Source: a virus (Duplodnaviria > Heunggongvirae > Uroviricota > Caudoviricetes). Taken from it: a DNA stretch of 25,384 bases. Positions 1 through 24,115 of this stretch are shown here, piece after piece. Made by a program: the position numbers and the translations under genes. Positions within the stretch are counted from its first letter, which is position 1. The number at the start of each line of letters is the position of its first letter. The stretch lies in the IMG/VR virus record IMGVR_UViG_2718218100_000015. One strand, given 5' to 3'. Under the pieces are notes generated by a model that was given only the letters and a program-made list of their open reading frames with translations, searched no databases and was not told the origin of the DNA.

Positions 1-675
1 ATGTCTGCACCTGCATTGCCTGATGTCAGAACAGTATTTTGATTAATTGCCAGGGTTACAATGGCACAAATGCGGCACAGGAGGAAACGTGGTGTATTTA
101 AATATGGGGTAACTACTTGATTTAAATGGTGCGATAATAGGAACCAATAATCGCCACCAACACAATGATTTTAATACATAAATTAAAATAGAAGATTTAA
201 ACTACACACACCCCTATACACATTGGTGAAGGCGTTCGCTTTCCGCGCATTCTCAAGGCAGAAAAAACTTTTTTTGGGGGAAAACTGTTCATACTACTCA
301 TTGTGTTTTTTTTCATTAATATTCAAAAAGATATGAAATTAACGATTGATAAGAAGTGAACACTTTACTGTTCACCTTGACTGATTAATAAGTGCATAAA
401 AACCTAATTTTTGAGCACGGAAGGTATTTGTTCCTTACCCCATTTTTTCTCTTTAGTCCAGTACAACAAAAAATGCGCCCAACAGAAAACTGTTTTGAAT
501 TTAAATGCAATCGCTTTGTAGTGATTGTAACGTAAGTTGATTTGATGGGTGCGATTTTGTTTAGCGATAATGGTATGTTGTAAAAATCATTTCGTTGCAA
601 TAAAATTGCATCGCTACATTTTATAGACAATATCAATTAAATTTTAATACTCATTATTAATTTTGAGGCTAACAA

Positions 676-1632
676 GTGACTAGTTATTCAAACTTTTCCA
701 ATCAAATAAAAGAAACCATCAATAATAAATTCGATCATGAAATTCATGATTGGGACATTATAAAAAACTCAATCACAACTTTAACAAATAAAAATATCCA
801 TGGTGCAGGTAGAAATATCGTTGATTTTATAGATTTAGGTAACTGGGATTTTATTTCAAACTTTTCCTTTGATGACTCTACAAGAAGACTTGAATTAGAG
901 TGGCACCCCAATGATAAATTCCATATATATATTGAGTCCGTTGTGTTTGTCGAGTTTAATGACACTATATATGCTTTCTTAAAGGGATACTATCACAATC
1001 AGTTATCTCTAAATAGAATATATAATACAAAATGCTCTTCATGTTCATTTGAAAACTCAGGTTCTTATATGGTAGACGTTTATAGAACGGTTAAAAGAGT
1101 AAATGAGACAATCCAGACCCCAAATATAAATTGCTATACTACATGTATTTTAACAAGGCCCGCAAATGGTCATGTTACATCTACAGGCTTCTCACGAAAC
1201 CTCATGGATGCGATAAATATTTCATTAGCAGAGCACAAAATAGCCTCTTTACATAATGAAGTCATGAGTATTGAGGAATATGATCGTGATTCTTTACAAG
1301 AGAAAGGAAATACTGCCAGGAGATATTTAGAATATATTCTCATGCTTGTTAATATTCGTATAATGCATTTAAACAACGTTCAATACCAAGAGCAAATGCT
1401 AGGTAGTTTAGTTTCTGTTATTGAGGCTCTGGACTATGAACCATTAATGAAAAATGATGTTGAAATTACAAAGGACATCCTTAATGCTTGCAGCCACCAC
1501 GGGGGGGTTAGAATTGAAAAGAAAGATGTAATTTTTTCTTTGGAAGTTATTGAAAACTTAATTAAAGCCATAAAGAAAACCGACATAAATAAATTACAAC
1601 TCGATGGGATGTTTAAATCAATTCAAAAATAA
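676..1632 (+). CDS. hypothetical protein, AT-rich accessory gene (318 aa), function unknown
   Basis: Long ORF with GTG start at 676 and GAGG 8 nt upstream; about 30% GC versus about 50% for the neighbouring primase; convergent with primase. Contains an Rx4H-like string (TRPANGH), which is weak evidence only. Confidence 0.5.
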   Translation: MTSYSNFSNQIKETINNKFDHEIHDWDIIKNSITTLTNKNIHGAGRNIVDFIDLGNWDFISNFSFDDSTRRLELEWHPNDKFHIYIESVVFVEFNDTIYAFLKGYYHNQLSLNRIYNTKCSSCSFENSGSYMVDVYRTVKRVNETIQTPNINCYTTCILTRPANGHVTSTGFSRNLMDAINISLAEHKIASLHNEVMSIEEYDRDSLQEKGNTARRYLEYILMLVNIRIMHLNNVQYQEQMLGSLVSVIEALDYEPLMKNDVEITKDILNACSHHGGVRIEKKDVIFSLEVIENLIKAIKKTDINKLQLDGMFKSIQK

Positions 1633-1764
1633 ACATCATCTAACAATGAATTAGATGCATTTTCCGCTGACGCCTTAGCATATAACTTTTAAATTTTATC
1701 GATATATATTTTGAGATAATTTCCTGTAGCGGATTTAAGACCGGCACAGCCGGTCTTAGGTCAG

Positions 1765-4098
1765 TTATTTCGCTGCAAACTCATCGCATTTTGGCAACCA
1801 GTCAGCATTGCTTTCCTCTCTTAGGGCCAGATTAGTCTGCATTCCTTGATTGGTCCGTCGTTTCTCATACTGCAGCCCATATTCCTTGAGCATTAACGGT
1901 AGCCCCTTGCCAAACATGGTCAGACTGAGCGTATTTTTATAGCCGTTAGCCTCCATGTAGACCAGATAGGCATGGTAGAGGTAAGTTCGAGGCTGACGTG
2001 GAACAATATTAGCGTTCCCCATAAACATGCCCGTGGTGTCAGGTAGGACCTCAAGGTAGCCGCAAAAATCAAAAGCTGAATCAGCATCACGTTTGATGGT
2101 GAGCGCTTCATCGGAGTTCTGCTGTGACTGAAGCAATGTCCTGGCACTCATTGGGTCGCTGAAACGCTGCATAAGCTGGCGAACAATCACCGCTAGCTCA
2201 CTGGCAATTTTCTCTTTGAGCTGGGTATCGCGTTCCTCCGGGGCTATCTGGTCGGGGAAATGCAGGATCACCCTTCGGCGTGAAACTCCACCACTACGAT
2301 CAGTGAAGCGCATCGGATTATTGTTCACAGCCAGGATGACCGCCGGGATGTGGGTTGAATAGGCGTTCTGATATTTGGGATCAACGGATACCGCATCGCC
2401 GCCAGTGATGGCTTTTAGTCCGGCCCCGTCACCGCTCCACTTTTCCTGGTCGGGAAGTCGAATCAGTGAAAAACCTATTAACGCAGCTCGTTCTCTTGGC
2501 GACTCAAGCATTTCAATGGTTGCCGAGGTCGCGTTATCTTCACCCGCCAGCATGGTTGCTATTTCAGCAAGAATACTCTTTCCACTTCCGCCAGGGCCAG
2601 TGACCTCCAGAAACAGCTGCCAGTCATAACGGTTAGCCAGCACCATAAACAATGCAGCCAGAATAATGTCCCGTTTTTCAGGATTAAAACCTGCGGCACG
2701 ATCCAGCCAGCGCCAGAATGCCGGGGCATGGGTTTCCAGTGACTCACCGTCAACGGGCTGCGTGTAATCCACCTCGCACAGCGTACGTAACCAGTGCTTC
2801 TTATCGTGCGGGCTGAACAATCCTGTCCGGGTATCGAGCACACCGTTGCGAAATCCGATAAGTTGCCGCGCCGGATTCTGCTGTTGCGGAACGATCAGTT
2901 TGAGGGTTTCCACGAGAGACGCAATTTTCGCGGATGAAAAAGGTGCGTCGAGGCGCTGAAACAGCGCAGCGACATCACGGGCAAAATCGGCGTAATAGAT
3001 AACTTTCCAGGCCCCCGCCTCATAGCGTGAAAGGAGCTGCCCGTTCGGGTCTACTGCCAGTGAATTTTTATAGTGATCCACTACCCTCTGCGCTTTTTCG
3101 CTGACGCTCAGCGCGGTAAATTCAGCTTCGCTCATTGTGTCGAAGGGGCTGGCAACAGCTGGTTTTATTACTTCATGAATTGCATGCCGGGTGGCTTCTT
3201 CGCCGTTTTGCGTGAATGCATCGTTCCAGTCACCAAACACAGGCGGGAGCGCCATTGTGCAATTGCAGGCCCCGGTAACAGCTGCGCCCCTTGTTTGCCC
3301 CGCACCGTTGAGATCGCGGTCAGCAGCAATAATTATCTGGTGCGTTGGGTACTCACTGCAGGCAATGCTCGCCAGGGAAAGGAAATTGACGGACGAAAAG
3401 GCCACCATGACAGCATCGCCAGTCAGATAGTTGATAGTAAGTGCGGTGGCATATCCTTCCGCTATCCAGAGCCGTTTGGCTGCTTTGGCAGTACCTTCAA
3501 CCAGGTAAAAGGCATTCTTAACCTGACCGCCTTTAAGGAAGCATTTGCCCCCATTAGCGTTGATTAACTGCAGATTTACCAGCTCTCCATCTGCATACAA
3601 TGGAACGACAAGATCTCCCGCGCGAAATGCCACACCACCGACTTTATGCATAGCGGTTAATTCCCGGCAAGGCAGTGCAGGAAACCCTTTACTCGTCAGA
3701 TAGGCATTGCCAGTGGTCTGGCGGGACTTATCAAACAAACGGGCAGCCAGCACTGCTGCAGCTTTTCTCCCGTCCTCTTTTTCAGGAGAACCAGATTCAA
3801 GCATTCCCTGAGATACTGGCAGCAGGTTTCCGATAATGCCGTTTATTCTGTCTGCCGCTTCACTAATGCCTACATCCAGTACTTTACTTACAAGCGCCAG
3901 GCCATCACCTGCCCCGCACTGGTTACAGAACCACGTTCCCCGCCCTTCCTGGTCATCAAATCGAAAGCGGTCTTTCCCGGCACAGACCGGGCAGGGCTGG
4001 TGCCGATTTTTCAGTACATTTACGCCCAGCGCAGGTAAAATTCTTGACCAGTGACCCCGAGCTGCTTTCTCAGCCTGGCTAACTTTCATTCCTGACAT
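1765..4098 (-). CDS. P4 alpha-like DNA primase/helicase (777 aa)
   Basis: N-terminal zinc-finger CPVCAGKDRFRFDD and CNQCG, Walker A VTGPGGSGKS in the C-terminal helicase part; ATG at 4096-4098 preceded by AAGGAGG (rc of 4107-4113); length equals P4 alpha. Confidence 0.9.
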   Translation of the reverse strand: MSGMKVSQAEKAARGHWSRILPALGVNVLKNRHQPCPVCAGKDRFRFDDQEGRGTWFCNQCGAGDGLALVSKVLDVGISEAADRINGIIGNLLPVSQGMLESGSPEKEDGRKAAAVLAARLFDKSRQTTGNAYLTSKGFPALPCRELTAMHKVGGVAFRAGDLVVPLYADGELVNLQLINANGGKCFLKGGQVKNAFYLVEGTAKAAKRLWIAEGYATALTINYLTGDAVMVAFSSVNFLSLASIACSEYPTHQIIIAADRDLNGAGQTRGAAVTGACNCTMALPPVFGDWNDAFTQNGEEATRHAIHEVIKPAVASPFDTMSEAEFTALSVSEKAQRVVDHYKNSLAVDPNGQLLSRYEAGAWKVIYYADFARDVAALFQRLDAPFSSAKIASLVETLKLIVPQQQNPARQLIGFRNGVLDTRTGLFSPHDKKHWLRTLCEVDYTQPVDGESLETHAPAFWRWLDRAAGFNPEKRDIILAALFMVLANRYDWQLFLEVTGPGGSGKSILAEIATMLAGEDNATSATIEMLESPRERAALIGFSLIRLPDQEKWSGDGAGLKAITGGDAVSVDPKYQNAYSTHIPAVILAVNNNPMRFTDRSGGVSRRRVILHFPDQIAPEERDTQLKEKIASELAVIVRQLMQRFSDPMSARTLLQSQQNSDEALTIKRDADSAFDFCGYLEVLPDTTGMFMGNANIVPRQPRTYLYHAYLVYMEANGYKNTLSLTMFGKGLPLMLKEYGLQYEKRRTNQGMQTNLALREESNADWLPKCDEFAAK

Positions 4099-4111
4099 TG
4101 TGCGGCCCTCC

Positions 4112-4435
4112 TTAGTGCAGCGCTGGTTTGTTGAGGTGACGGGAACAAAGTTCATCCATGACCGTCATTCCGAGCAGTGAGAGAACCGGACAGGCTTTAA
4201 GCGGCCCCGACTCCATCAGATCCGAAAGCAACGCGCAGGCAATTTCCAGCCCTCTTTGCTGCCCATGCTGGCGCAGATAGAACCCTTCCAGCTCGCGGGC
4301 TATGGCATCTTCAAGTTCAGCGAGCGTCAGGCCGGAATAACGTTCCTGATGATTGCTTAGAGCCAGCCAGGCACAGGCAACGGCACGGCGATACAGAGCG
4401 GCACGAAGTGCCAGAAGAGATTCACAGCATATCAT
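4112..4435 (-). CDS. hypothetical protein (107 aa) in P4-like early operon
   Basis: ORF whose stop overlaps the primase RBS; chained by overlaps to the upstream ORFs, which suggests translational coupling. No recognisable motif. Confidence 0.45.
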
Positions 4436-4656
4436 CAGGCCACCTCCGCATTCATCAGGTCGTCATGGCAGCGTTGCACCACTCCATCCAGTTGCTCTGT
4501 CATCAGATAAATGAGGGAAACCAGTTGTTCGCATTGGGCACCTGCTGGCTTTTCATAACAGTCCTGCAGGGCTGCCATGCCAGTTACATACTCACCCACA
4601 TTGCGTAAATGTTTCAGCCTTACAACATCGTCGTAGGAAATCTCAAACTGGTTCAT
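4435..4656 (-). CDS. hypothetical protein (73 aa)
   Basis: ORF overlapping the downstream ORF by 1 nt and the upstream ORF by 4 nt; no recognisable motif. Confidence 0.4.
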
Positions 4657-5210
4657 AGCGTCACCTCCCCGGCAGGCAGCCGTGCAGAAAGGGAGAGTAC
4701 ATAATCTCGGACTAGCAAACGGCGCGCGGAACGCTCATCGCAGGAGACAGTGCGAAGCATACAGATGCGGGGGTGAGTGTCAGCACGGCGGATTGCGGCA
4801 AACACAAAGACATATTGCGGGTGTGACGGGGTGAGGATTGTAGCCATGATGGCAGCCTCCAATAAGTAGCGGTTATTGCTACCACCGGAAACGCCAATTT
4901 CACTGGTGGCAGCCCGAACGGGGTTGGCGTAACCGGCCTTATTGGAAACCGGCCAGCCCGAAGGCTGCCCCGCCCGGACTACCATTATCTCGATAGAACC
5001 ATGGTGTAAGCATAAACACCACAGCCCTGAAAATGGTTGTGCCTGAGCTACGACGTAAAAAAAGACGCAAGGGGCGTCAATTGTCGCCAATAAGTTATAC
5101 GGAACGCCAATTCCGGCTGCCGATTTTGCGACAGCGGAAAAACTATACCTGGAAATGACGACAGTAAGCAAGCCAGAATAAAGGTATTTAATGTATGCAG
5201 GTATCATCAT
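4653..5210 (-). CDS. doubtful ORF (185 aa); may be partly non-coding P4-type immunity/leader region
   Basis: Start overlaps the alpA stop (ATGA), but composition is atypical (Cys/Trp-rich, low complexity) and the 5' part (about 4860-5200) looks like structured or intergenic sequence. Confidence 0.25.
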
Positions 5211-5467
5211 GCATCACATCCCCGCCCACGGGCGCTGATGCGGTCCGCCATCCATGCGCTGACCTCAGACTGTGCCCAGGCGACATTTTTACCGCCAAGC
5301 GGGATCTGCTTCGGAAACGCATCGCGGCTGATCAGGTCGTAAACGGTCGAACGGGACAACCCGCATAAGTGCATCACCTCAGGCAGGCGTAAAAATCGCT
5401 CATGATGGTTCGATACAGGAAATAATGGCGCAGCAGGAGCTGGCGCAGACACAGAAATATTACGCAT
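5207..5467 (-). CDS. AlpA/Vis-family prophage transcriptional regulator (86 aa)
   Basis: [32 protein letters not shown]...[14 protein letters not shown] matches the AlpA-type HTH pattern; sits at the head of the leftward operon ending in primase. Confidence 0.8.
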
Positions 5468-6302
5468 TTATCTACCCTCTTTAATTTCCACAACAGTCCG
5501 GATGAATTTATCCGGGTTCAGGTAGTTCCTTATTATGTGTATATAAACCACCTGCGCACGCATTTTTTATTTAGCGTCACATATTGATTTTATGGAATTT
5601 AAAGCCCGATTAAACCATATAAAATGACATAATAAATACCATGCCTGCGGACTATAAATACAGGAGCATTAATAGGAACTACCATTCACCCAGGGTTTAC
5701 TATCCTATGGGTCATTGCACCTGATAGTGCTAACCCCACCGCCAATACAGCAAGGCAGTACAACTTCTACACGAGGCCTTGCATTGCAGGCCCCAATTTC
5801 CGGGCATATTTTTGAATCGCATCCAACTTATAAACATTGGGCCTGCATAAAAACCTTGATATTAAATAACATCACCTTAAATCGTAAAATATATCCGAAT
5901 GAATCCATAAAGAACCGGACAGATCTAGTTTTATAAAAATCAGTATGAAATGCAACACCATGGCCAGAGGCGAAAATGTTATTCCCCGGCAAAAACATGC
6001 AGTCTATTTATGTGCCTGTTGAATACTCCTGAATAAGGGTGAATAGTGGTGAGGAGCAAAAAACAAATAGCTACGAGGAATAAAAAAACCACCCATTATG
6101 AAAAAATACCATAAATAATTTTATTCCCATGTGAACAGTTATGAACAGTCGATGAATACTGCCATGCCAACCCTTCACCTTATAACCTTCTGTATTACCT
6201 ATTTTTTTTACCTAAGTGAATAGTTAAGGTAAGTCTGAAACAGCCTTAGTTAAACGAGGCCTTTTCTGGCTAGCCAAAAGAGGTCCGGGGCGGTTCAGTC
6301 TT

Positions 6303-6320
6303 TGTCTTGTCGCTCGCACA
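6303..6320 (+). promoter_or_regulatory. TGT-N12-ACA dyad, candidate Ogr/Delta-dependent late promoter element upstream of sid
   Basis: tgt cttgtcgctcgc aca at 6303-6320, centred about 80 nt upstream of the sid ATG at 6391; P2/P4 late promoters carry this dyad near -55. Confidence 0.45.
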
Positions 6321-6390
6321 ATGGCGTTCAATGGCAGCTTTGTATGCATCACAGCACAATTGACACCACGACAAACCACTAGGTGCTGAC

Positions 6391-7143
6391 ATGACAATCC
6401 CAGAACAGAACAATAACCCGATCGTTGAAATTTCTATCCCTGTTTCGACGCAACAGGCGCTTGAGAAAGTGAATGCCACCAAATCTGCATGGCTTGAAGC
6501 ACGTCGTCAGCAAAAAGCGGCAGCGGATAATATTGCGACAATCCGCCAGCGCCGCGCTGAAATGGAAGCCACGACGAACGCCCTGAATGAGGAGTGGCGC
6601 ACGCTATTTCGTGAAAGTCAGGGCGTAGTCTCAAAGGAAATGAAAAAACTGCGCACGGAAATTGCGCTGGGACGAGAAACGCTTGAGGATTTTGATGAGC
6701 TGCTGGCGGCTCAGGAAAGCGAAAATGCACTTTTGCCGCAGGAGGCTGCGGAATTAGCCGGAAAGTATATCCACGCGCACGACACCCTTGTGGGTATTCG
6801 CGCAAAACAAATCTGGGAAGATTTTATGCAGTCGCATGGAAAAGCACTAATCCAGACACTAAGCCTGCTCAAATCAACAATGGGCAGGGAAGCCAGCGCA
6901 GTTGTCGGTGTGGTGCATTCAGTTAATGACCCGGACACACTGCTGAAAGATTTTATTCATAAACATATCACCAGACCGGCTCTGACTAACGATGCGATGC
7001 CCGAACAGGACCCCGTGTTTAAACTGGCGGGAGTTGCCCCGGATTATGCGGCCCGTCTGGATTTCAGTAATAAACTCTCTCCAGCAGCTATGCATAAAAT
7101 GAAGGTTCGTCAGGAACGTGCTGAGAAGGAGAAAGCAGTATGA
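6391..7143 (+). CDS. sid: Sid-like capsid size determination (external scaffold) protein (250 aa)
   Basis: Charged/helical 250-aa protein first in an operon followed by Psu-like and Ogr/Delta genes; size and context match P4 Sid. Assignment is by context, not motif. Confidence 0.55.
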   Translation: MTIPEQNNNPIVEISIPVSTQQALEKVNATKSAWLEARRQQKAAADNIATIRQRRAEMEATTNALNEEWRTLFRESQGVVSKEMKKLRTEIALGRETLEDFDELLAAQESENALLPQEAAELAGKYIHAHDTLVGIRAKQIWEDFMQSHGKALIQTLSLLKSTMGREASAVVGVVHSVNDPDTLLKDFIHKHITRPALTNDAMPEQDPVFKLAGVAPDYAARLDFSNKLSPAAMHKMKVRQERAEKEKAV

Positions 7144-7691
7144 TGGCCCGAGTCACTCCAGACCAAGCGCTTATCAGTTTTAGAAATGCCCGTATTCTGT
7201 GGGCTGGACATAGTGAGAGCCGAAAAGCCGTTGAACAACAGATAGAATCACTCCTCACTGCCATGGAAAAACCAGCAGATTATGCTCGACAGCTCGAATT
7301 ACAGCGGGAACATCTGGATGTGCTGAAATGGCAAATTAACTGTGCTGCGCGCGAATGCATTTACTCGCAGCATCAACTGATGGAGGCCTGCACAGAAGAC
7401 GCTCTCAGCAATTTTATGCAGGCGAATGGAGCAGCCCTGACATCTGCACTGGCTCCGTTCCTGAAGGGGCGCGGAGGGGTTGACGTTGCGTCCCGTATAT
7501 TACGCAATGCTCTGGTTCGCCAGCTGGCAATAACACCGCCTGAAATTGCCGGGGATTATCGTATGATTCTGGATGAATCCGGTGTGATGCCTGACCCCAT
7601 GATGGTTCGTGATTGCCAGAGCTCTTACACCCCTGCACAACAACTGCGCTTTCAGCAACGTCTGGATTACATTAACGGCATGCAGGAGTAA
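7140..7691 (+). CDS. psu: Psu-like polarity suppression / capsid decoration protein (183 aa)
   Basis: ATGA overlap with sid; recalled similarity to P4 Psu (KWQINCAAREC, QANGAALTSALAP, YTPAQQ) and size close to 190 aa. Confidence 0.65.
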   Translation: MMARVTPDQALISFRNARILWAGHSESRKAVEQQIESLLTAMEKPADYARQLELQREHLDVLKWQINCAARECIYSQHQLMEACTEDALSNFMQANGAALTSALAPFLKGRGGVDVASRILRNALVRQLAITPPEIAGDYRMILDESGVMPDPMMVRDCQSSYTPAQQLRFQQRLDYINGMQE

Positions 7692-7696
7692 TATTA

Positions 7697-7969
7697 ATGG
7701 CACTTAAATGTCCCGAATGCGGTACGACGGCACACGCCAGAACCTCCGCCTATGAAGCACCATCGGTTAAACGCTCATGGTATCAGTGCCAGAATCTTGA
7801 ATGTTCCTACACATTTACCGCACTGGAAAGTGTGGATACGATAATCATGAAGCCCCGGCGCAATGAACAGGAATCAGAGAAAGCACAAATGCCGGAAAAA
7901 CAACAGCAAACTCTCAATCGCTATGGCTCCGCGTCAAAGCTGTCAAGCCGTCAGCAAATTCCTGTCTGA
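7697..7969 (+). CDS. Ogr/Delta-family zinc-finger late transcription activator (90 aa)
   Basis: CPECGTTAHARTS...YQCQNLECSYTF is the Ogr/Delta C4 zinc-finger signature; GGAG RBS at 7685-7688. Confidence 0.85.
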   Translation: MALKCPECGTTAHARTSAYEAPSVKRSWYQCQNLECSYTFTALESVDTIIMKPRRNEQESEKAQMPEKQQQTLNRYGSASKLSSRQQIPV

Positions 7970-7990
7970 TTAGCAAAAAAAGCCCACGTA

Positions 7991-8017
7991 ATCCCGGTCC
8001 AGTACTGGGATTTTTTA
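7991..8017 (+). terminator. intrinsic terminator after the late operon
   Basis: Hairpin atcccggt-ccagt-actgggat (8-bp stem with one GU pair) followed by TTTTTT at 8011-8016, 22 nt after the delta stop. Confidence 0.55.
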
Positions 8018-8378
8018 CGCCTTTTCCCTGGCTGGCCTGAGAGCGCATGAGTGCATGTCTATAGCGCATGAAAACGCATGATTCTCATGCACCATTTTTG
8101 ACGCGAAAGCCCTTGTGTGGTGGCTTCTGAGACGATTTGCGGAATGCATGAAAACCAGTCTGTTAAGCGAAGCGAGCAGGCGTGGGGGGCTGCGCGCGCT
8201 AAGGGGTTAGATTATAAAATATCAAACGCCGGTGAGATCCATTATTGTGGAACCACCCGAAGGAAGTGTAGAGGCGAAAGTACCCAAAATAATTTTGCAA
8301 ATTATTTAGAAATGAACTGAGCGCTCGAAACGAAATATAATTTCGAGCACCCCAATTAGCAGTTATATTTTTAATGTA

Positions 8379-8945
8379 TTAAACAGGATAAAAACCAGAG
8401 CTTCCATTCTTATTTAAGTTATGGATTTTATTTGCATCATTAATTTTTATTTGGAACGTCGGACCTTTATTCTCAAGAATTACAATCTGGAAATTATAGT
8501 CCCTTTTGATTAATGCGTGATAAAATGAATCACTGAGACTGACGCTATTAACATCCGATAGAGAACCCCCTCTATCTTTATCAAAGTGCGTCACTAATGG
8601 ACTATCAAGCACAACAAATCCAATGAATGGATTCCCTTTTCTTGATAAAAATTCCGCAAAGCAAATGGTAAATATAGCATGCATTACTGCACGGGTACCT
8701 TTACCAAACATTCCTCGGCGTTTCCCATTGATATTAAAGTCATATGTATCTTCGTCAAATCGCACTTTGTTATCTTTAGAATTTTCAAAATTTATATCAT
8801 TCAAAAAGTCTTGCATCGCTATTTCTATATCATACAAATCAGCTACTGTTAAGGAGTCAAAGTCCTCGGCGGAGTATTTAAGTTCGTCAACATCATCTTC
8901 TTTATCTTGTAATGAAGATAGAATGCTATGTTTTGTGTGATCCAT
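8379..8945 (-). CDS. C-terminal ATPase part of a split SMC/ABC-type ATPase (signature-like FGKGTR, Walker-B-like FVVLDSP), 188 aa
   Basis: ATG at 8943-8945 overlaps the upstream stop (TAATG); FGKGTRAVMHAIF...FIGFVVLDSPLVTHFD resembles ABC signature plus Walker B/D-loop; last gene of the AT-rich cargo operon. Confidence 0.5.
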   Translation of the reverse strand: MDHTKHSILSSLQDKEDDVDELKYSAEDFDSLTVADLYDIEIAMQDFLNDINFENSKDNKVRFDEDTYDFNINGKRRGMFGKGTRAVMHAIFTICFAEFLSRKGNPFIGFVVLDSPLVTHFDKDRGGSLSDVNSVSLSDSFYHALIKRDYNFQIVILENKGPTFQIKINDANKIHNLNKNGSSGFYPV

Positions 8946-9535
8946 TAAAAGATTGTCTTTATATTCATAAAGTGATTCAAGAGATGAATGTATTGTTTTA
9001 TATTTTTATCTTCTAACGTCTTAAAATCACTTTTTTCTGATTGATAAATTTCATTAACATCATTTTTTCTTAACATAATTAATTCATGTTCGCGAACATT
9101 AGATCCGATTGATTCAATTAATCCTTTCAGCTGGCTTTTGATTTTCAATTTTTCTGCATTACACGACAAAAAACAATCATCATATGATATTTCATTTTCT
9201 TTTTTTTGCGGTGTATTACAGAACTCACAATAAATATCTGCAAAATTATTTAAATAGAAATTCGCCTGTGATACAACATCTATTCTTTGTAGATCTATAA
9301 AGTATTGGTCTTTAAGAAGACTAAATCTTTCAATGAGTAATGATAAGTATTTTTCCCTGTCACTGATTGAATATAATTCATCACTTAACTCTTTTAATAA
9401 TTGCTTCTTATCATCAAGTGCATCAACAATACCTTTCAATATATCTTTCGATGATTCAATATCTTGCTCTACTTTCTCAAGTTCTCTTGAAACAATGACT
9501 TGATCATATTCAGGATAAATTAATTGCGCTTTCAA
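8945..9535 (-). CDS. coiled-coil middle segment of the same ATPase (196 aa); no ATG, follows an in-frame TAA
   Basis: In the same frame as ORF 9566-10225, separated only by TAA at 9566-9568 and 10 sense codons; heptad-like charged sequence with CEFC...CFLSC Cys pairs. The ORF-track 'start' is TTG. Confidence 0.45.
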   Translation of the reverse strand: MKAQLIYPEYDQVIVSRELEKVEQDIESSKDILKGIVDALDDKKQLLKELSDELYSISDREKYLSLLIERFSLLKDQYFIDLQRIDVVSQANFYLNNFADIYCEFCNTPQKKENEISYDDCFLSCNAEKLKIKSQLKGLIESIGSNVREHELIMLRKNDVNEIYQSEKSDFKTLEDKNIKQYIHLLNHFMNIKTIF

Positions 9536-9565
9536 TTCCTCATAAATATTTGCAATTTGATTTTT

Positions 9566-10198
9566 TTAAAAATATCTTGCTTTTTTATTTGGTTTTTCTG
9601 CTAAGGAGTTAGTATCATCTCTCTGAGTTAAAAGGAATTTAAATTCAGACTTTCTTTTTGTCTCCTCGCTAGGAATATCAGAAAGAATTAACGACTTCTC
9701 AGTTAACACTCTTAATTCATCAATATAAAAAAATTCAAAAACATTATTAAGATTAAATTTATGAAGAGTATTACTTAAGTTTGTTCTTACTTTAGCCTCT
9801 TTGAAATTCAACCTACCATAAAAGTATGATGAAAAACTCTTTTTAGACGAAGCACTTTTGGAAAAAACCATCAACAGATTAGCTTCACTAACATTTTCAA
9901 TGCTCGAATCATATAATCTGTAATGGGCGCTATCCTGAAGAGACCTCTCAATTGTCATTACCCTACCTTGAAAATTAAATTCCAGATAGGCTAAATCATA
10001 ACCTTGAGCATGATCGATATCTTTATTTTTTAGTTTTTCACTCCCTAATAAATATCGAATCAAATAATATATGTATGTTTTTCCAGAGTCAGAACCACCA
10101 TATAAAATAGTCAATTTAGAACCAAATTCAATTATAGCATCTAATTTATTGAATCCGGTTACCTTTATTTTTCTGAACGTAAAAAAATTGTCATTCAT
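9566..10198 (-). CDS. N-terminal Walker-A part of SMC/ABC-type ATPase (LmuB-like), terminated by in-frame TAA
   Basis: ATG at 10196-10198 (MNDNFFTFRKIKVTGF...), Walker A ILYGGSDSGKTY at residues 32-41; ends at TAA 9566-9568 with the reading frame continuing downstream. Confidence 0.55.
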   Translation of the reverse strand: MNDNFFTFRKIKVTGFNKLDAIIEFGSKLTILYGGSDSGKTYIYYLIRYLLGSEKLKNKDIDHAQGYDLAYLEFNFQGRVMTIERSLQDSAHYRLYDSSIENVSEANLLMVFSKSASSKKSFSSYFYGRLNFKEAKVRTNLSNTLHKFNLNNVFEFFYIDELRVLTEKSLILSDIPSEETKRKSEFKFLLTQRDDTNSLAEKPNKKARYF

Positions 10199-10649
10199 AA
10201 TTAAATTCCATATCATATTTGCCAATTTTATTTTTTATAATTGATTGCAACTGCTCATCAGGAATATCACTATATAACTTAACCACCAAATTTATATTAT
10301 GCTCCATCTGCGCAACATATTCATTATGTAGAGAATTTGTAAATGCATATGTTTTTTCAGAAGCTTTATATACAAAACCACGATGTGTATAAATTTTTGA
10401 GGCTAGTTCATAGCCTTGCAACAAAGCCAATGATTCTAAAACAATCTCTCGTTTTAGGGCTAACTGAGCATCTCTACGGGGTATTGGAGGATGAAGACTA
10501 ATCTCTTCAGGTAAAAAATCCTTAAGATTTACTAAAATAAAATCAAAACAAATAAGCCGTTCAAGGCTTAATGAAGAAGGATAAATAGCGACGAGCACTT
10601 TCGCCATTCGACATGCCACTTCTAAACTTGAATTATAAATTCTAACCAT
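10191..10649 (-). CDS. small hypothetical protein (152 aa) of the cargo operon (LmuC-like position)
   Basis: ATG at 10647-10649 overlaps the stop of the upstream ORF (TAATG); stop overlaps the start of the ATPase gene; no recognisable motif. Confidence 0.45.
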   Translation of the reverse strand: MVRIYNSSLEVACRMAKVLVAIYPSSLSLERLICFDFILVNLKDFLPEEISLHPPIPRRDAQLALKREIVLESLALLQGYELASKIYTHRGFVYKASEKTYAFTNSLHNEYVAQMEHNINLVVKLYSDIPDEQLQSIIKNKIGKYDMEFNYE

Positions 10650-11266
10650 TATCTCACCGTCCAAATTACTTCACCATCATTAACCAAATGATGGCATATT
10701 CCTTTTTTATCATTTGCTTCACATATTTTTGATAGTACTGAATGTGCAATTGGTGTCAGAACAGCCTGCTTCAAGACTGCATTACACCTAATAAATGCAT
10801 AATTATGGTCTTCATAAAAGACGGGTTCAATTGAAGATGAAATGTAACATTTCAATGCTTTGAATACATCATCTTTAAATACTTCGCGGACAAAAACCTC
10901 AAGCGAAGATGCAAAATAAAAATCATTTCTACTATTATTAAAGTGTCGTCTGTATGGATCATCAAGCTCTAAGAAAGAACTATAAGTTTTATTTCCATGC
11001 TCTGAATAGGCTTGAAGCAGTGCATTAACATATACAGACTCTTTTTTTGAATTGTATGTTGGAATTTCATTTGGAGGGATTCTCACGACATACAGCTCGT
11101 TAAAGTACTTAAAATAAAGGTGTGTATTTGCAATATCATTTAAAATCAATGATAAGGGTAGAGAGTAAAAAATACTAAAATCAAAATCCTCAATATATTT
11201 TTTTATTTCATCATCTAATGGAATATCAATCTTTTTAGTTATTTTTTTGAAATTGCTGAATCCCAT
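10649..11266 (-). CDS. C-terminal portion (205 aa) of putative effector; probably the same gene as 11239-11655 after a frameshift
   Basis: Overlaps the upstream ORF by 28 nt around an A7 run (T7 at 11242-11248 on the plus strand); the two frames differ by 1. Confidence 0.45.
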   Translation of the reverse strand: MGFSNFKKITKKIDIPLDDEIKKYIEDFDFSIFYSLPLSLILNDIANTHLYFKYFNELYVVRIPPNEIPTYNSKKESVYVNALLQAYSEHGNKTYSSFLELDDPYRRHFNNSRNDFYFASSLEVFVREVFKDDVFKALKCYISSSIEPVFYEDHNYAFIRCNAVLKQAVLTPIAHSVLSKICEANDKKGICHHLVNDGEVIWTVR

Positions 11267-11655
11267 GAATCAAGGACTGCTTTTTTAAGCTCGTTTTTAT
11301 TTTTCAATAAATTAGAAAATGTAGTAGATAAATCATAGGGTGCCACAAAAAAGTACTTCTGAGGGATGGGATAATCACCATTCAGAGTAAAATAGATAAG
11401 TTTTCCAAACTCAACTACAACATCAGAGAACCCTAAACTTTTTTTGTACAGTTTGCATTGATAATTATCCCAAGAATAACCTTCTACGTTAGGATCCGAT
11501 TTATATCCAACAACGTCTCTACCTTTATCTCCAGCTCCTCCCAAACGTTCGCTCCACGGGTAATCATCTGATTTACAGACAATAAGCCAATCATGGACAA
11601 ATACCTCCCATTGTTCATCATCCCATGTCAATATTTCCGAAAGTGGTTGAGACAC
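11239..11655 (-). CDS. N-terminal portion (138 aa) of putative effector with Mrr/Cap4-like PD-(D/E)xK nuclease signature
   Basis: GGAGDKGRDVVGY...NYQCKLYKK fits the D-x-G-x-D ... Q-x-K pattern of Mrr-type restriction-endonuclease folds; first gene after the integrase in the cargo slot. Confidence 0.5.
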   Translation of the reverse strand: MSQPLSEILTWDDEQWEVFVHDWLIVCKSDDYPWSERLGGAGDKGRDVVGYKSDPNVEGYSWDNYQCKLYKKSLGFSDVVVEFGKLIYFTLNGDYPIPQKYFFVAPYDLSTTFSNLLKNKNELKKAVLDSWDSAISKK

Positions 11656-11658
11656 AAA

Positions 11659-12840
11659 TTAACTCCTTTTTAGTCTTTCAAATATCAAATTACTGTACCA
11701 GTCCATCATAGACTTCCTTCCACTAAAATATTGAGCATGGTTATAAGTCCCCCTAATAGAATTTTTATCTACATGAGCCAACTGGATTTCAATCCAAGCA
11801 CTCTCAAAACCTTGCTCATGCAGGATTGTAGAAAGGGTATGACGAAAACCATGTCCAGTGACTTTTCCTCCATACCCAATACGCTTAATGGCTTGATTTA
11901 TACTCGCTTCGCTCATTGGCCTATTCGGATCGTTCCGCCCTGGAAAAACATAACGATAGTTCCCTGTCATGATCTTGAGTTCATTGAGTAAATCTACCGC
12001 TTGAGATGATAAGGGCACAAGATGTGGCCTACGCATTTTCATCCTTTCAGCAGGAATTTCCCAAATAGCGTTATCCAGATCAAATTCTTGCCATAATGCC
12101 GCGCGTAATTCGATGGTTCTCACACCCGTAATCATCAGTAATTTCGTGGCTATCTGGACAAGCTTACTCCCGGAGTAACCCTCTAAGGCACGTAGAAAAT
12201 CAGGTATCTCATCAGCTTTTAGGAATGGGAAATGATTGGATTGGTGTACTTCGAGAGCGCTGGAGAGCTCAGCCGCAGGATTGTACTCCGCCCTACCCGT
12301 TGCAATTGCGTAGCGAAACACTTCGGAGCAACGCTGCCGCACTTTGCGCATTTTCTCCAACGCACCACGTTTCTCAATTTTACGCAGAACGTTCAGCAGC
12401 TCTAGCGGTTTAATCTCTCCCACAGGCCTTGTTCCGACATAAGGAAAAATGTCGTTCTTAAACGCTTCCATGATGTCTGATGCATATCCCGCCGACCATT
12501 TAGCAGATTTAAGTTGATGCCACTCTCTGGCTATCTTTTCGAAGGCGTTCTCTGACTCTGTTTGCATAGCTAGCTTTTGCTCTTTTCGAACCTCACTAGG
12601 GTTCTTTCCTTCTGCCACAAGTTTTCGAGCTTCATCACGACGGGAACGAGCATCGGCAAGGGTGATCGTTGGGTAAACACCAAGCGAGATCATTTTGGGT
12701 TTGCCGGCATAGCGATAGCGGAACCGCCAACTCTTGCTTCCATTAGGTTCTATAAGTAATGACAACCCTAGCCCATCTCCAAATGTATAGGCTTTAGCTT
12801 CAGGCTTAGCGCGGCGAATCTGCATATCGTTTAAAGGCAT
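11659..12840 (-). CDS. int: P4-type tyrosine integrase (393 aa)
   Basis: ATG at 12838-12840 (MPLNDMQIRRAKPEAKAYTFGDG...); catalytic region HGFRHTLSTILHEQG ... IRGTYNH; lies 160 bp downstream of a tRNA-Thr 3' fragment in the same orientation. Confidence 0.9.
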   Translation of the reverse strand: MPLNDMQIRRAKPEAKAYTFGDGLGLSLLIEPNGSKSWRFRYRYAGKPKMISLGVYPTITLADARSRRDEARKLVAEGKNPSEVRKEQKLAMQTESENAFEKIAREWHQLKSAKWSAGYASDIMEAFKNDIFPYVGTRPVGEIKPLELLNVLRKIEKRGALEKMRKVRQRCSEVFRYAIATGRAEYNPAAELSSALEVHQSNHFPFLKADEIPDFLRALEGYSGSKLVQIATKLLMITGVRTIELRAALWQEFDLDNAIWEIPAERMKMRRPHLVPLSSQAVDLLNELKIMTGNYRYVFPGRNDPNRPMSEASINQAIKRIGYGGKVTGHGFRHTLSTILHEQGFESAWIEIQLAHVDKNSIRGTYNHAQYFSGRKSMMDWYSNLIFERLKRS

Positions 12841-13002
12841 GTGTATAGGAATCCAGACCGAACAGGAACATATACACAATCCTATACACATTCAGTACCG
12901 GATTCTACTGGATGGTTACGGACTACTATGGACTTAAAAGAATAAAAAATGTTATAAATCAGAGATTTTATGGACTAATACGGACGTTTGAGGAAGTTGA
13001 GA

Positions 13003-13048
13003 TGGTGCCGATAATAGGAGTCGAACCTACGACCTTCGCATTACGAAT
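13003..13048 (-). other. 3' fragment (about 46 nt) of tRNA-Thr(CGU), thrW-like; att-site remnant, 5' half absent
   Basis: Reverse complement reads ATTCGTAATGCGAAGGTCGTAGGTTCGACTCCTATTATCGGCACCA (anticodon loop through CCA end); sequence beyond 13048 does not continue as D-arm or acceptor stem. Confidence 0.75.
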
Positions 13049-21755: not shown

Positions 21756-22612
21756 ATGAAGAAAGCAGCAATTTTAATTGATGCGGGTTTTTTCATGCAG
21801 CGTGTTCATGCTACGCATCGTAAACACTTCGCCGAGCATGAACTGACTGTGCAATGCATAATGAAAGTAATATGGTCAATGGTTCTTTCCCATCTTAATG
21901 GAAAACGTCAATCACAAGAACGTAGGGAACCGCTTGAGCTTTATAGAATTTACTTCTATGACTGTCCACCACTCGACATTCAAACACGCCTTCCACTTCC
22001 TGAGCCTGGCAATAAGACGCCTGGTCGCAAGAATTTCAAACTCGAAAAATCATATATTCTGAGAACGGAGCTGCATGAAGAGTTAAGAAAAACTCGAAAA
22101 ACAGCCTTAAGATTAGGGAATCTTGTTGATAATAAGCGATGGCAACTAACTACATTCTCCCTTGATGCTCTGATGAAAGGAACGAAAAAATGGGATGAAC
22201 TGACAAATGATGTTTTTACTATGACATCAAACAAAAACAAGTTGATATCAAGCTAGGGATGGATATCACGACTTTAGCTTATGAAAAACTTGTTGATGTA
22301 ATTGTCCTTGTTGCTGGGGACTCAGACTTTGTGCCTGCCGCCAAACACGCCAGAATTAAAGGTATTGATTTTATTCTTGATCCACTAAGACAGAATGTTA
22401 CCCCATCACTGTCAGAGCACATTGATGGAGTTCAGTCATACAGCTTGATATCAGGACTTGCCGATGCTTTACATGTTGAGCCAGACCCGGCACCTGACTG
22501 GTGGGAAGATCGAAAAAAAGGCAAGCCTAGAGGAAAAAACAATAGCGGTAAACGCAGGTATGGAAACACTCAAGCTGAGTCTGCAAAGAAACATCAAAGA
22601 AATAAACGATAA
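21756..22612 (+). pseudogene. NYN/LabA-like (PIN-fold) domain protein in the position of lambda rexAB; split into 166-aa and 117-aa ORFs by a frameshift near a T5 run
   Basis: ORF1 begins MKKAAILIDAGFF; the second frame reads ...KQVDIKLGMDITTLAYEKLVDVIVLVAGDSDFVPAAKHARIKGIDFIL; the frames overlap across 22211-22256 with T5 at 22213-22217. Confidence 0.55.
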
Positions 22613-22733
22613 TCCCATCAACCCGGCCACCGAGCCGGGTTTTCTTTGCCTCTCGATCGCCCCACCTAAAAACACATAATGAACCGCCCCGGAAATCCTG
22701 GAGACTAAACTCCCTGAGAAAGAGGTAAACAGG

Positions 22734-23060
22734 ATGACTAAAAATACTCGTTTTTCCCCCGAAGTCCGTCAGCGGGCGATTCGTATGGTTCTGGAAAGTC
22801 AGGATGAATATGACTCACAGTGGGCGGCAATTTGTTCCATTGCCCCAAAGATTGGCTGTACGCCGGAGACTCTGCGTGTCTGGGTTCGCCAGCATGAGCG
22901 GGATACCGGGGGCGGTGATGGTGGGCTCACCAGCGCTGAACGTCAGCGTCTGAAAGAGCTGGAACGTGAAAATCGTGAACTGCGCCGCAGTAACGATATC
23001 CTTCGCCAGGCTTCCGCTTATTTTGCGAAGGCGGAGTTCGACCGCCTCTGGAAAAAATGA
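22734..23060 (+). CDS. IS629 transposase OrfA (108 aa)
   Basis: [60 protein letters not shown]... with HTH and leucine-zipper-like C-terminus. Confidence 0.85.
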
Positions 23061-23947
23061 TGCCACTGCTGGATAAGCTGCGTGAGCAGTACGGGGTCGG
23101 ACCGGTATGCAGCGAACTGCATATTGCCCCGTCAACGTATTACCATTGTCAGCAACAGCGACATCATCCGGATAAACGCAGTGCCCGTGCGCAGCACGAC
23201 GACTGGCTGAAGAGAGAGATACAGCGCGTATACGATGAAAATCATCAGGTGTACGGTGTGCGTAAAGTCTGGCGTCAGTTGTTACGGGAAGGAATCAGGG
23301 TGGCCAGATGTACAGTGGCACGTCTCATGGCGGTTATGGGACTTGCCGGTGTTCTCCGGGGTAAAAAGGTCCGTACGACCATCAGCCGGAAAGCCGTTGC
23401 CGCAGGCGACCGCGTAAACCGTCAGTTCGTGGCAGAACGACCTGACCAGCTGTGGGTGGCTGATTTTACTTACGTCAGCACATGGCAGGGCTTCGTCTAT
23501 GTGGCGTTTATCATTGATGTGTTTGCCGGATACATCGTGGGGTGGCGGGTCTCATCGTCTATGGAAACGACATTCGTGCTGGATGCGCTGGAGCAGGCGT
23601 TGTGGGCCCGTCGTCCGTCTGGCACCATCCATCACAGCGATAAAGGCTCTCAGTATGTGTCACTGGCCTATACGGAGCGACTAAAAGAAGCCGGATTACT
23701 GGCATCAACAGGGAGTACAGGCGACTCGTATGACAACGCGATGGCTGAGAGCATCAATGGTCTTTACAAAGCGGAGGTAATACACCGTAAGAGCTGGAAA
23801 AACCGTGCAGAAGTGGAACTGGCCACACTAACGTGGGTGGACTGGTATAACAATCGACGATTGCTGGGAAGGCTGGGCCATACTCCTCCGGCAGAAGCAG
23901 AAAAAGCTTATTATGCTTCCATCGGAAACGATGATCTGGCAGCCTGA
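23057..23947 (+). CDS. IS629 transposase OrfB (DDE integrase-like catalytic domain), expressed as OrfAB by -1 frameshift
   Basis: ...[31 protein letters not shown]...[11 protein letters not shown]...[19 protein letters not shown]... shows the D, D, E catalytic spacing; overlaps orfA in the -1 frame. Confidence 0.85.
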
Positions 23948-24115
23948 GTTCACAGATAAAACACTCTCCAGGAAACCCGGGGCGGTTCATAACCAATTGT
24001 ATTTATTTTAAAATTAATAGGTGCAACTCACTAAACAACGCAATTCTGATCTCTCGATCACCTCCCAAGCCACACAACCCTGCAAAAAATAAATCTATAT
24101 AAAAAACATACAGAT

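Follow-up and report, generated by a model that had tools for sequence, protein, structure and literature searches.

What remains of a defence system when its genes are broken into fragments, and can the fragments still act together? This question is raised by a run of small, AT-rich open reading frames (ORFs) at positions 8379-11655 of the Caudoviricetes record IMGVR_UViG_2718218100_000015, a 25,384-nucleotide (nt) stretch of DNA referred to here in its entirety as the window. A previous reading of the sequence alone had interpreted these ORFs as a candidate Lamassu-type defence operon located in the cargo slot of a P4-like satellite, between the gene for Ogr/Delta and the integrase gene. Our analysis leads us to conclude, with a probability of roughly 0.88, that the locus is a recently inactivated short type II Lamassu system, which resides in the cargo slot (int-Ogr/Delta) of the satellite prophage Sp2 at thrW in the Escherichia coli O55:H7/O157:H7 lineage and has decayed in a stepwise manner.

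Six reading frames are the pieces of three Lamassu genes

The window aligns collinearly (>99.9% identity) with the prophage region close to thrW in E. coli O157:H7 Sakai, and the interval 8379-11655 corresponds to ECs_0290-ECs_0293 of this strain. This minus-strand operon (3.28 kb; 3,277 nt) has a G+C (GC) content of about 30%, with values of 0.27-0.34 over positions 8501-11500 as opposed to ~0.5 in the satellite core. It comprises six successive, tightly packed ORFs of 138, 205, 157 (152 from ATG), 219 (210 from ATG), 196 and 188 amino acids (aa), which represent the pieces of only three genes: lmuA is present in two pieces, lmuC as a whole and lmuB in three pieces. The PADLOC matches span each gene from end to end across its pieces (E values from 1e-21 to 1e-50; 9e-41 to 9.5e-50 for the larger pieces), and the strength of these hits to LmuA, LmuC and LmuB, together with those to Pfam CTD6 and MC2 (~1e-30), shows that the operon is not a chance arrangement. 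The sequence-only reading was therefore right in its description of a ~3.3-kb, ~30% GC minus-strand operon, whose quoted ORFs and motifs are all in place, and in its Lamassu-type call with the order nuclease, small protein and SMC-like ATPase. Parts of this assignment were already visible in public annotation. ECs_0293 is marked as a pseudogene ('AAA family ATPase') in the Sakai record, and the PGAP labels in RefSeq records such as that of EDL933 comprise an 'ABC-three component system protein', an 'ABC-three component system middle component 2', an 'AAA family ATPase' and three 'hypothetical proteins'.

The lmuA gene starts 3 nt past the stop codon of the integrase gene and is preceded by an AGGAG motif. 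The same spacing of 3 nt is found in Pantoea and a spacing of 18 nt in Serratia. The short distance in the window suggests that the lmu operon may be co-transcribed with int. A promoter scan returned 23 sites, compared with 20.2 ± 4.5 in shuffled sequence, and in view of this lack of an excess we do not claim a promoter.

In the effector LmuA, a putatively Mrr-like PD-(D/E)xK nuclease domain at the N terminus is followed by CTD6 at the C terminus. Of the 336 positions of the PADLOC LmuA model PDLC03852, ORF 11239-11655 covers positions 10-140 and ORF 10649-11266 positions 141-333. The latter ORF, which the sequence-only reading had skipped, also matches Pfam CTD6 (PF20282; 7.7e-30, 104 bits). 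It constitutes the C-terminal half of lmuA, so that this gene is split as well, by a frameshift at 11242-11248. Intact homologues of 335 aa are collinear with the repaired gene. The N-terminal piece contains the sequence GGAGDKGRDVVGY...NYQCK, and the predicted active-site residues D43, D47, Q66 and K68 are unchanged across 55-56 family members. A match to Mrr_cat (PF04471) is precomputed for some homologues (P0077, P0137 and P0154).

The nuclease call that had been made for the N-terminal ORF holds at the level of the predicted fold. We modelled the Xenorhabdus homologue P0035 (67% identical) using AlphaFold with 55 family sequences, which yielded a predicted local distance difference test (pLDDT) score of 94.4. 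In a Foldseek search, the best matches of this model in the PDB were the solved LmuA chains 9nxx, 9hqx and 9ny1 (full length, probability ~1.0), followed by the PD-(D/E)xK nucleases MspJI, Cap4, the Avs3 nuclease domain, EndoMS and FokI. In fold, Cap4 nucleases ranked level with the remaining PD-(D/E)xK nucleases, and the matches listed included no Mrr structure. Since the Xenorhabdus protein was modelled, this structural evidence concerns the LmuA family and not the window protein itself. PDB searches with the repaired LmuA as a single sequence produced only noise, and a search with the LmuA family profile gave no sequence-level match.

A division of LmuA-family genes into two adjoining ORFs also occurs in Mycobacterium sp., Candidatus Endobugula sertula and Salinivibrio sp. 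(Table 1), which suggests independent effector decay in these genomes.

The middle component gene lmuC, which stands between lmuA and lmuB as in Lamassu systems, is intact. Its product has the same length as its intact homologues (152 aa) and is recognized by both Pfam MC2 (PF20288; 6e-30, 104 bits) and the PADLOC LmuC model PDLC03871 (2.5e-36). The downstream gene lmuB codes, once repaired, for a short Rad50/SMC-like ABC ATPase with 85% identity to the 606-aa homologue P0001. As proposed previously, this ATPase extends over three consecutive ORFs, which tile the 610 positions of the PADLOC LmuB model PDLC03863 (3-199, 231-412 and 428-608). Pfam detects AAA_23 on the N-terminal piece and a weak, sub-threshold DUF3732 match on the C-terminal piece. 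The residues that are invariant in the LmuB family alignment (G34, S36, D37, G39, K40, C324, C327, G499-K-G-x-R503 and D532-S-P) are all kept in the window. The arm of the protein, which has a predicted coiled coil, holds a single family-invariant CxxC motif. Thus, of the paired cysteine motifs noted earlier, CEFC is invariant but CFLSC is unconserved, its first cysteine being replaced by tyrosine in Proteus and by alanine in Pantoea.

A profile of the LmuB family matched the solved LmuB of Salmonella (9hqu_A) with an E value of 1.9e-18, in an alignment that pairs the Walker A motif (K40), the CxxC hook, the signature region and the Walker B motif of the two proteins. In this alignment, D532-S533-P534 coincides with FLILDQP and C324/C327 (CEFC) with CPMC of the Salmonella hook. 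The profile also matched Vibrio cholerae LmuB (9ny5_D) and the heads of Rad50/SMC proteins. A PDB search with the intact LmuB P0001 as a single sequence retrieved only noise; the links to solved Lamassu structures came solely from the LmuB profile and the fold search with LmuA.

Intact relatives reveal the ancestral architecture

Searching with the LmuB sequence joined in silico, we identified unbroken 606-aa proteins in Proteus mirabilis (85% identity) and Pantoea alhagi (73%) as well as homologues with ~44% identity in Salmonella, Serratia, Citrobacter, Klebsiella, Yersinia and Aeromonas. Intact three-gene operons coding for proteins of 335, 152 and 606 aa are present in Proteus, Pantoea, Serratia and Xenorhabdus, and the uninterrupted ORFs of intact relatives span 334-335, 152-159 and 604-609 aa. 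At the nucleotide level, the Proteus operon is 89.3% and the Pantoea operon 79% identical to that of the window. The sequence-only reading had suggested a comparison with intact loci in other P4-like elements, and such loci exist: the operons of Pantoea alhagi (CP019706) and Serratia marcescens occupy the same slot, between a P4-type int gene and Ogr/Delta-Psu-Sid, in satellites that adjoin proBA, and both show the canonical architecture. The Xenorhabdus operon, by comparison, lies within a complete prophage. We then considered 56 related loci from Proteobacteria, Bacteroidota, Actinobacteria, Firmicutes, Cyanobacteria, Myxococcota and one archaeal metagenome-assembled genome. An LmuA-family ORF and an MC2 ORF are located directly upstream of LmuB in 52 of them, and the CTD6-MC2-ATPase pairing recurs in all homologous loci examined by Pfam.

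Three point lesions separate the locus from its intact relatives

When aligned to the intact operons (3,279 nt), the DNA of the window (3,277 nt) is interrupted by no more than two 1-nt gaps and a single stop codon. The first gap lies in lmuA, where a coding-strand run of eight A residues is reduced to seven. The site now reads TCA AAA AAA TAA, and beyond residue 138 the LmuA sequence runs on in the -1 frame. Repair of this junction yields ...DSWDSAISKKITKKIDIPLDD..., which matches the intact proteins residue for residue. The stop codon replaces Leu211 of LmuB (TTA to TAA): position 9567 is a T in the window but an A in the O55:H7 strain DEC5D, and the codon reads TTA in Proteus and CTG in Pantoea. 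The second gap, near codon 398 of lmuB, shortens a run of six A residues to five. Beyond this point, the frame of LmuB is that of ORF 8379-8945, and the joined translation reads ...LEDKKYKTIHSSLESLYEYKDNLLMDH.... The break between the middle and C-terminal ATPase ORFs does not lie at 8945 but is a 1-nt deletion at 9003-9007, which places the last ~20 residues of ORF 8945-9535 out of frame.

To follow the lesions through the species, we surveyed 5,426 complete E. coli genomes, 309 of which hold the locus, always with at least 99% identity (99.7% in O55:H7 DEC5D). None of these 309 records matched a query with the repaired lmuA junction, all of them aligning at 99.0% (97/98 bases), and the deletion in lmuB was likewise present in 309 out of 309. 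The nonsense codon is found in 299 records, whereas the ancestral TTA is kept in ten, which belong to O55:H7 and early O157 lineages and comprise O55:H7 strains, the sorbitol-fermenting clone 493/89 and LSU61. A distant DNA search for a diverged, intact allele in complete E. coli genomes returned none, with all matches again at 99% identity or above. Both deletions are hence older than the common ancestor of O55:H7 and O157:H7, and the nonsense codon arose on the branch of typical O157:H7. Further homopolymer indels were added in sublineages, and O55:H7 DEC5D has an extra deletion of its own at 9031-9036. The ordered lesions can therefore serve as lineage markers, with two shared deletions followed by TAA in typical O157:H7 and then by the sublineage indels.

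Two of the O157:H7 strains examined, JEONG-1266 and FSIS11705876, show an additional single-base deletion at 9200 (T8 versus T7), and FSIS11705876 another one at 9655 in lmuB (T5 versus T4); these, like the deletion in DEC5D, may be either real or assembly errors.

The ratio of non-synonymous to synonymous substitution rates (dN/dS) between the window and Proteus genes is ~0.12, so that most of their divergence accrued under purifying selection. Within lmuB, the window and O55 alleles differ by one synonymous and five non-synonymous changes. Collectively, the locus is a once-functional system that has undergone stepwise, neutral decay. While the sequence-only reading recognized the type of system, it left unstated the break in the nuclease gene and the fixed pseudogene status of the locus in its lineage.

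The locus has been described as 'Lamassu-var'

The same locus has already been cloned. The Domainator study (Nucleic Acids Res 2024, PMC11754643) collected hotspots flanked by Psu and integrase genes from 2,718 E. coli genomes. Its commonest cluster (cluster 1; 259 hotspots, with a Psu protein 31% identical to that of P4) was reported to contain '3 to 9 CDSs' that are 'related to Lamassu systems'. A representative, 'Lamassu-var' (CP038295:4116517-4120474 from the O55:H7 strain TB182A), reduced the plaque size of phages T2, T4, T6 and RB69, visible only at the most dilute titres, and is regarded in the paper as an abundant functional variant (PMC11754643). The passages of the paper that deal with Lamassu make no mention of frameshifts, and its main text describes no catalytic-mutant control (PMC11754643).

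We found that the cloned interval, which shares 99.7% identity with the window, codes for the five fragment proteins that are also encoded by DEC5D. It also includes the Ogr/Delta gene. The cloned O55:H7 allele has the frameshift in lmuA and two frameshifts in lmuB; relative to this allele, the TAA at codon 211 is an extra lesion of the window, which in turn lacks the deletion at 9031-9036. Lamassu-var and the window locus are thus the same locus, and what was designated an abundant variant is a standard three-gene system in a clonal, pseudogenized form. Its '3 to 9 CDSs' are explained by the three point lesions that break a standard three-gene Lamassu operon. The suggestion that the window may contain an undescribed variant can also be set aside, given the full-length PADLOC models, the ABC-three component (ABC-3C) names assigned by PGAP and the cloning of the locus as 'Lamassu-var' (PMC11754643).

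The commonest cargo of Psu/integrase hotspots (259 hotspots in the published set, 309 records in ours) amounts to one clonal, decaying copy, whose frequency is inflated by the heavy sequencing of O157:H7, and the weak phenotype of the O55:H7 Lamassu-var merits re-examination. According to a survey from 2026, similarity to defence genes is seen in fewer than 1% of the pseudogenes found in P4-like satellites (PMC13586616). The locus described here is a case in point: a defence locus that was already a pseudogene when O55:H7 and O157:H7 diverged and is still present in its P4-like hotspot.

Probable loss of function and its alternatives

The solved Cap4-type Lamassu systems act by sequestration and release of their effector (PMC12663957; bioRxiv 10.1101/2025.03.14.643221). 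By analogy, a dimer of the Rad50-like LmuB in the intact ancestor would, together with LmuC, have held a single LmuA molecule by its C-terminal domain. Once DNA ends or phage replication intermediates were bound, LmuA would have been set free and may then have tetramerized through its C-terminal domain, so that its PD-(D/E)xK nuclease could degrade DNA and abort the infection. In the window, the lesions part the nuclease domain (residues 1-138) from CTD6 and sever LmuB after residue 210 and near residue 398, leaving an N-terminal head piece, a coiled-coil piece and a C-terminal head piece. Because the nuclease is activated by C-terminal oligomerization in the solved systems and LmuB is in three pieces, canonical Lamassu function is not to be expected.

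Several observations weigh against the interpretation of the locus as an inactivated Lamassu system. The broken O55:H7 allele, when cloned, still led to smaller plaques of T2, T4, T6 and RB69 (PMC11754643), so that its fragments may have some residual activity, and every catalytic and structural motif is still intact in the window. Moreover, Mrr_cat matches the nuclease fragment of the window only with an E value of 0.2 and 12 bits, compared with a Pfam cut-off of 21. Finally, the mechanism outlined above is extrapolated from Cap4-CTD7/MC3 systems to the CTD6/MC2 class, for which the PDB search with the LmuA profile identified no solved structure.

It is conceivable, albeit improbable, that the operon is split yet still working. 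The pieces of LmuB could reassemble non-covalently, comparable to co-expressed halves of the Rad50 head, while slippage on the A7 run during translation or transcription might provide traces of full-length LmuA, resulting in the weak defence published for 'Lamassu-var'. The effect of the cloned allele on plaque size (PMC11754643) and the retention of all motifs would agree with this scenario, as would two details of the sequence: the lmuA lesion, A_AAA_AAA followed by TAA, constitutes a classic -1 slippery heptamer, and the C-terminal piece of LmuB starts at a conserved in-frame ATG. However, the additional TAA at codon 211 in typical O157:H7 and the indels accumulating in sublineages correspond to what neutral decay looks like, full-length LmuB could be made from the O55 allele only by two independent slips, and three uninterrupted genes are found in every intact relative. 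The phenotype itself is marginal, was obtained with a clone that also holds Ogr/Delta and, as far as the main text goes, lacks a catalytic-mutant control (PMC11754643). It is on account of this published weak phenotype that we still assign a small likelihood to a working split operon. An extension of the idea, that the fragmented operon keeps a selectable anti-phage activity and has been retained by O157:H7 as an attenuated Lamassu system operating through LmuB reassembly and A7 slippage, appears quite improbable. If true, it would be a rare and long-lived exception to the recent claim that P4 hotspots exchange their defence loci before these turn into pseudogenes.

Very little speaks for the notion that the A run in lmuA evolved as a recoding or phase-variation switch that limits a toxic abortive-infection nuclease to very low or stochastic expression. 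Although A_AAA_AAA and the stop codon fall exactly at the boundary between the nuclease domain and CTD6, and over-expression of Lamassu effectors is toxic (bioRxiv 10.1101/2025.03.14.643221), the run shows no conservation, with the in-frame sequences TCAAAGAAAATAAGT in Pantoea and TCCAATAAAATAAGT in Proteus at this position. The in-frame A8 state was found in 0 of the 309 E. coli records, and lmuB is separately broken at two sites, which a switch in lmuA could not rescue. We therefore reject a programmed frameshift or switch, based on the absence of the slippery run from intact relatives, the lack of A8 in the 309 records and the independent breakage of lmuB. Sequencing or assembly errors in AT-rich homopolymers of an actually intact locus, as might be suspected from the position of two of the three lesions in homopolymer runs and from the additional single-base homopolymer indels in some assemblies, are refuted by the recurrence of both deletions in 309 of 309 independent complete-genome records, including Sakai, EDL933 and O55:H7, and by the nature of the nonsense change as a substitution with a distribution that tracks phylogeny, so that this explanation is almost certainly wrong.

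The surrounding satellite and its neighbours

The element that carries the inactivated Lamassu operon is annotated as 'prophage Sp2, P4-like phage' in Sakai and corresponds approximately to positions 133-13019 of the window; it is followed by the lambda-like remnant Sp1. Its assignment as a P4-like satellite with a cargo slot, first made from the sequence alone, is well founded. Pfam identifies the P4 framework of integrase, Psu, Sid-like protein (Psu matches of 7e-10 for the Sid-like and 4.8e-42 for the Psu protein), Ogr/Delta, Ash, AlpA and an alpha-type primase, and the Ash/AlpA region carries a C4 antisense RNA and isrK (Table 1), marking positions 4902-5135 as a P4-type immunity RNA region. 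The text of the Domainator study states that these Lamassu-carrying elements are not P4-like (PMC11754643), which is contradicted by the C4 RNA and the P4 hallmarks observed here.

Copies of the 3' end of thrW are located at both ends of Sp2, which shows that Sp2 and Sp1 are arranged in tandem at this gene. ARAGORN detected no tRNA in the window, because the window stops 14 nt before thrW; the integration site was set from the att repeat instead. It is possible that Sp2 has lost its mobility, and with it the turnover of its cargo. At the far end of the satellite, past the primase gene, the ORF ECs_0304 (318 aa, GTG start; 676-1632, plus strand; 29-35% GC) has no match in Pfam or PADLOC and could be a second, uncharacterized cargo gene of Sp2.

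Two further features lie in the region beyond Sp2. A segment of ~1.9 kb (22103-23992), missing from Sakai at that site, contains an IS3-family insertion sequence (IS) element and represents a strain-specific insertion in the Sp1 remnant. Compared with Sakai, the segment 16812-18563 has the reverse orientation (96% identity in an alignment with many gaps), and it adjoins the gene for the DNA invertase pinE and the Sp1 tail-fibre genes; presumably, it is a Pin-invertible segment in the opposite orientation.

Table 1. Features of the lmu operon, its lesions and the surrounding prophage region (window coordinates, except for the last row)
Feature	Position	Strand	Evidence
Degenerate thrW copy, other end of Sp2	117-142		
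C4 antisense RNA, Ash/AlpA region	4902-4989	-	RF01695, 84 bits
isrK, Ash/AlpA region	5058-5135	-	RF01394, 72 bits
Sid-like (Psu-family) protein	6391-7143	+	Pfam Psu
Psu	7140-7691	+	Pfam Psu
Ogr/Delta	7697-7969	+	Pfam Ogr_Delta, 1e-16
Terminator-like hairpin, 13-bp stem, 27 nt past lmuB stop	8319..8352	-	Consensus scan only
lmuB pseudogene, short Rad50/SMC-like ABC ATPase, 606 aa if repaired	8379..10198	-	PADLOC, family profile
LmuB Walker B, FVVLDSP	8598-8618	-	
LmuB signature-like GKGTR	8691-8705	-	
Lesion 3, lmuB: 1-nt deletion, coding-strand A6 to A5, near codon 398	9003..9007	-	Intact-operon alignment
LmuB CxxC hook, CEFC	9218-9229	-	
Lesion 2, lmuB: nonsense, TTA (Leu211) to TAA	9566..9568	-	O55:H7, Proteus and Pantoea comparison
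LmuB Walker A, GGSDSGKT	10076-10099	-	
lmuC, intact, 152 aa, ABC-3C middle component 2	10191..10649	-	Pfam MC2, PADLOC
lmuA pseudogene, 335 aa if repaired, GTG start at 11655	10649..11655	-	PADLOC, Pfam, intact homologues
Lesion 1, lmuA: 1-nt deletion, coding-strand A8 to A7	11242..11248	-	Proteus/Pantoea DNA alignment
Predicted nuclease active-site motifs GDKGRD (D43, D47) and YQCK (Q66, K68)	11452..11532	-	Family invariance
P4-type tyrosine integrase (intS, ECs_0289, 1182 nt), directly upstream of lmuA	11659..12840	-	Pfam Arm-DNA-bind_3, Phage_int_M, Phage_integrase
47-bp thrW 3'-end copy, att repeat, integrase end of Sp2	13002..13048	.	100% match to Sakai thrW
IS genes orfA and orfB; ALIL frameshift pseudoknot	22734-23947; 23015-23131		HTH_Tnp_1 (orfA), rve (orfB)
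Split LmuA-family genes in unrelated genomes	L022 (5381-6475), L029 (3460-4542), L062 (5219-6232)		

Comparison with known Lamassu systems

Short Lamassu systems have been defined by an LmuB protein of ~600 aa with a Walker A motif (Gx4GK[S/T]), a Walker B motif (hhhhD[Q/S/T/E]) and 0-2 CxxC hooks (Haudiquet et al., PMC12663957). The LmuB protein of the window displays all of these features, with 606 aa after repair, the sequences GGSDSGKT and FVVLDS and one CxxC motif, and its partner LmuA has the N-terminal effector domain and the C-terminal domain demanded of short type II systems, the latter expected to dock on LmuB/LmuC. What the window lacks are the three uninterrupted genes required for an LmuA-LmuB2-LmuC complex, with one frameshift in lmuA and one nonsense mutation plus one frameshift in lmuB. 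By descent, the locus is a short type II Lamassu member, in the form of a pseudogenized copy.

Compared with the solved systems, DdmABC of V. cholerae (PDB 9NY5, 9NYG, 9NXX) and LmuACB of Salmonella enterica (9HQU, 9HQX), the window shows the same gene order of lmuA, lmuC and lmuB. The LmuB proteins of all three have ~600 aa and a Walker A motif, the CxxC motif of the window aligns with the zinc hook of the Salmonella protein, and the Walker B motif is deviant, with the aspartate followed by serine in the window and by glutamine in V. cholerae and Salmonella. Similarly, the LmuA family of the window shares with its V. cholerae and Salmonella counterparts an N-terminal PD-(D/E)xK domain, predicted in this case, and a helical C-terminal domain. 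However, the solved systems combine Cap4-CTD7 with MC3, whereas the window combines a putatively Mrr-like nuclease and CTD6 with MC2. The similarity of LmuB to the solved proteins is confined to the profile level and that of LmuA is undetectable by profile search. Unlike the solved systems, the copy in the window is inactivated.

Much closer counterparts are the intact operons of Pantoea, Serratia, Proteus and Xenorhabdus, which have the same genes, lengths and order and from which the window differs by its three inactivating point lesions. Those of Pantoea and Proteus provide ready material for a first functional or structural study of a CTD6/MC2 (putatively Mrr-type) Lamassu system. The type of system is thus known, and the locus, which is already annotated and published, is neither new nor intact. 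With PF20282, PF20288 and AAA_23, it carries the domains of the CTD6/MC2 class of ABC-3C systems, and its matches to the corresponding models (PADLOC PDLC03852, PDLC03871 and PDLC03863) are full-length and high-scoring, reflecting an identical domain composition in genes that are merely fragmented.

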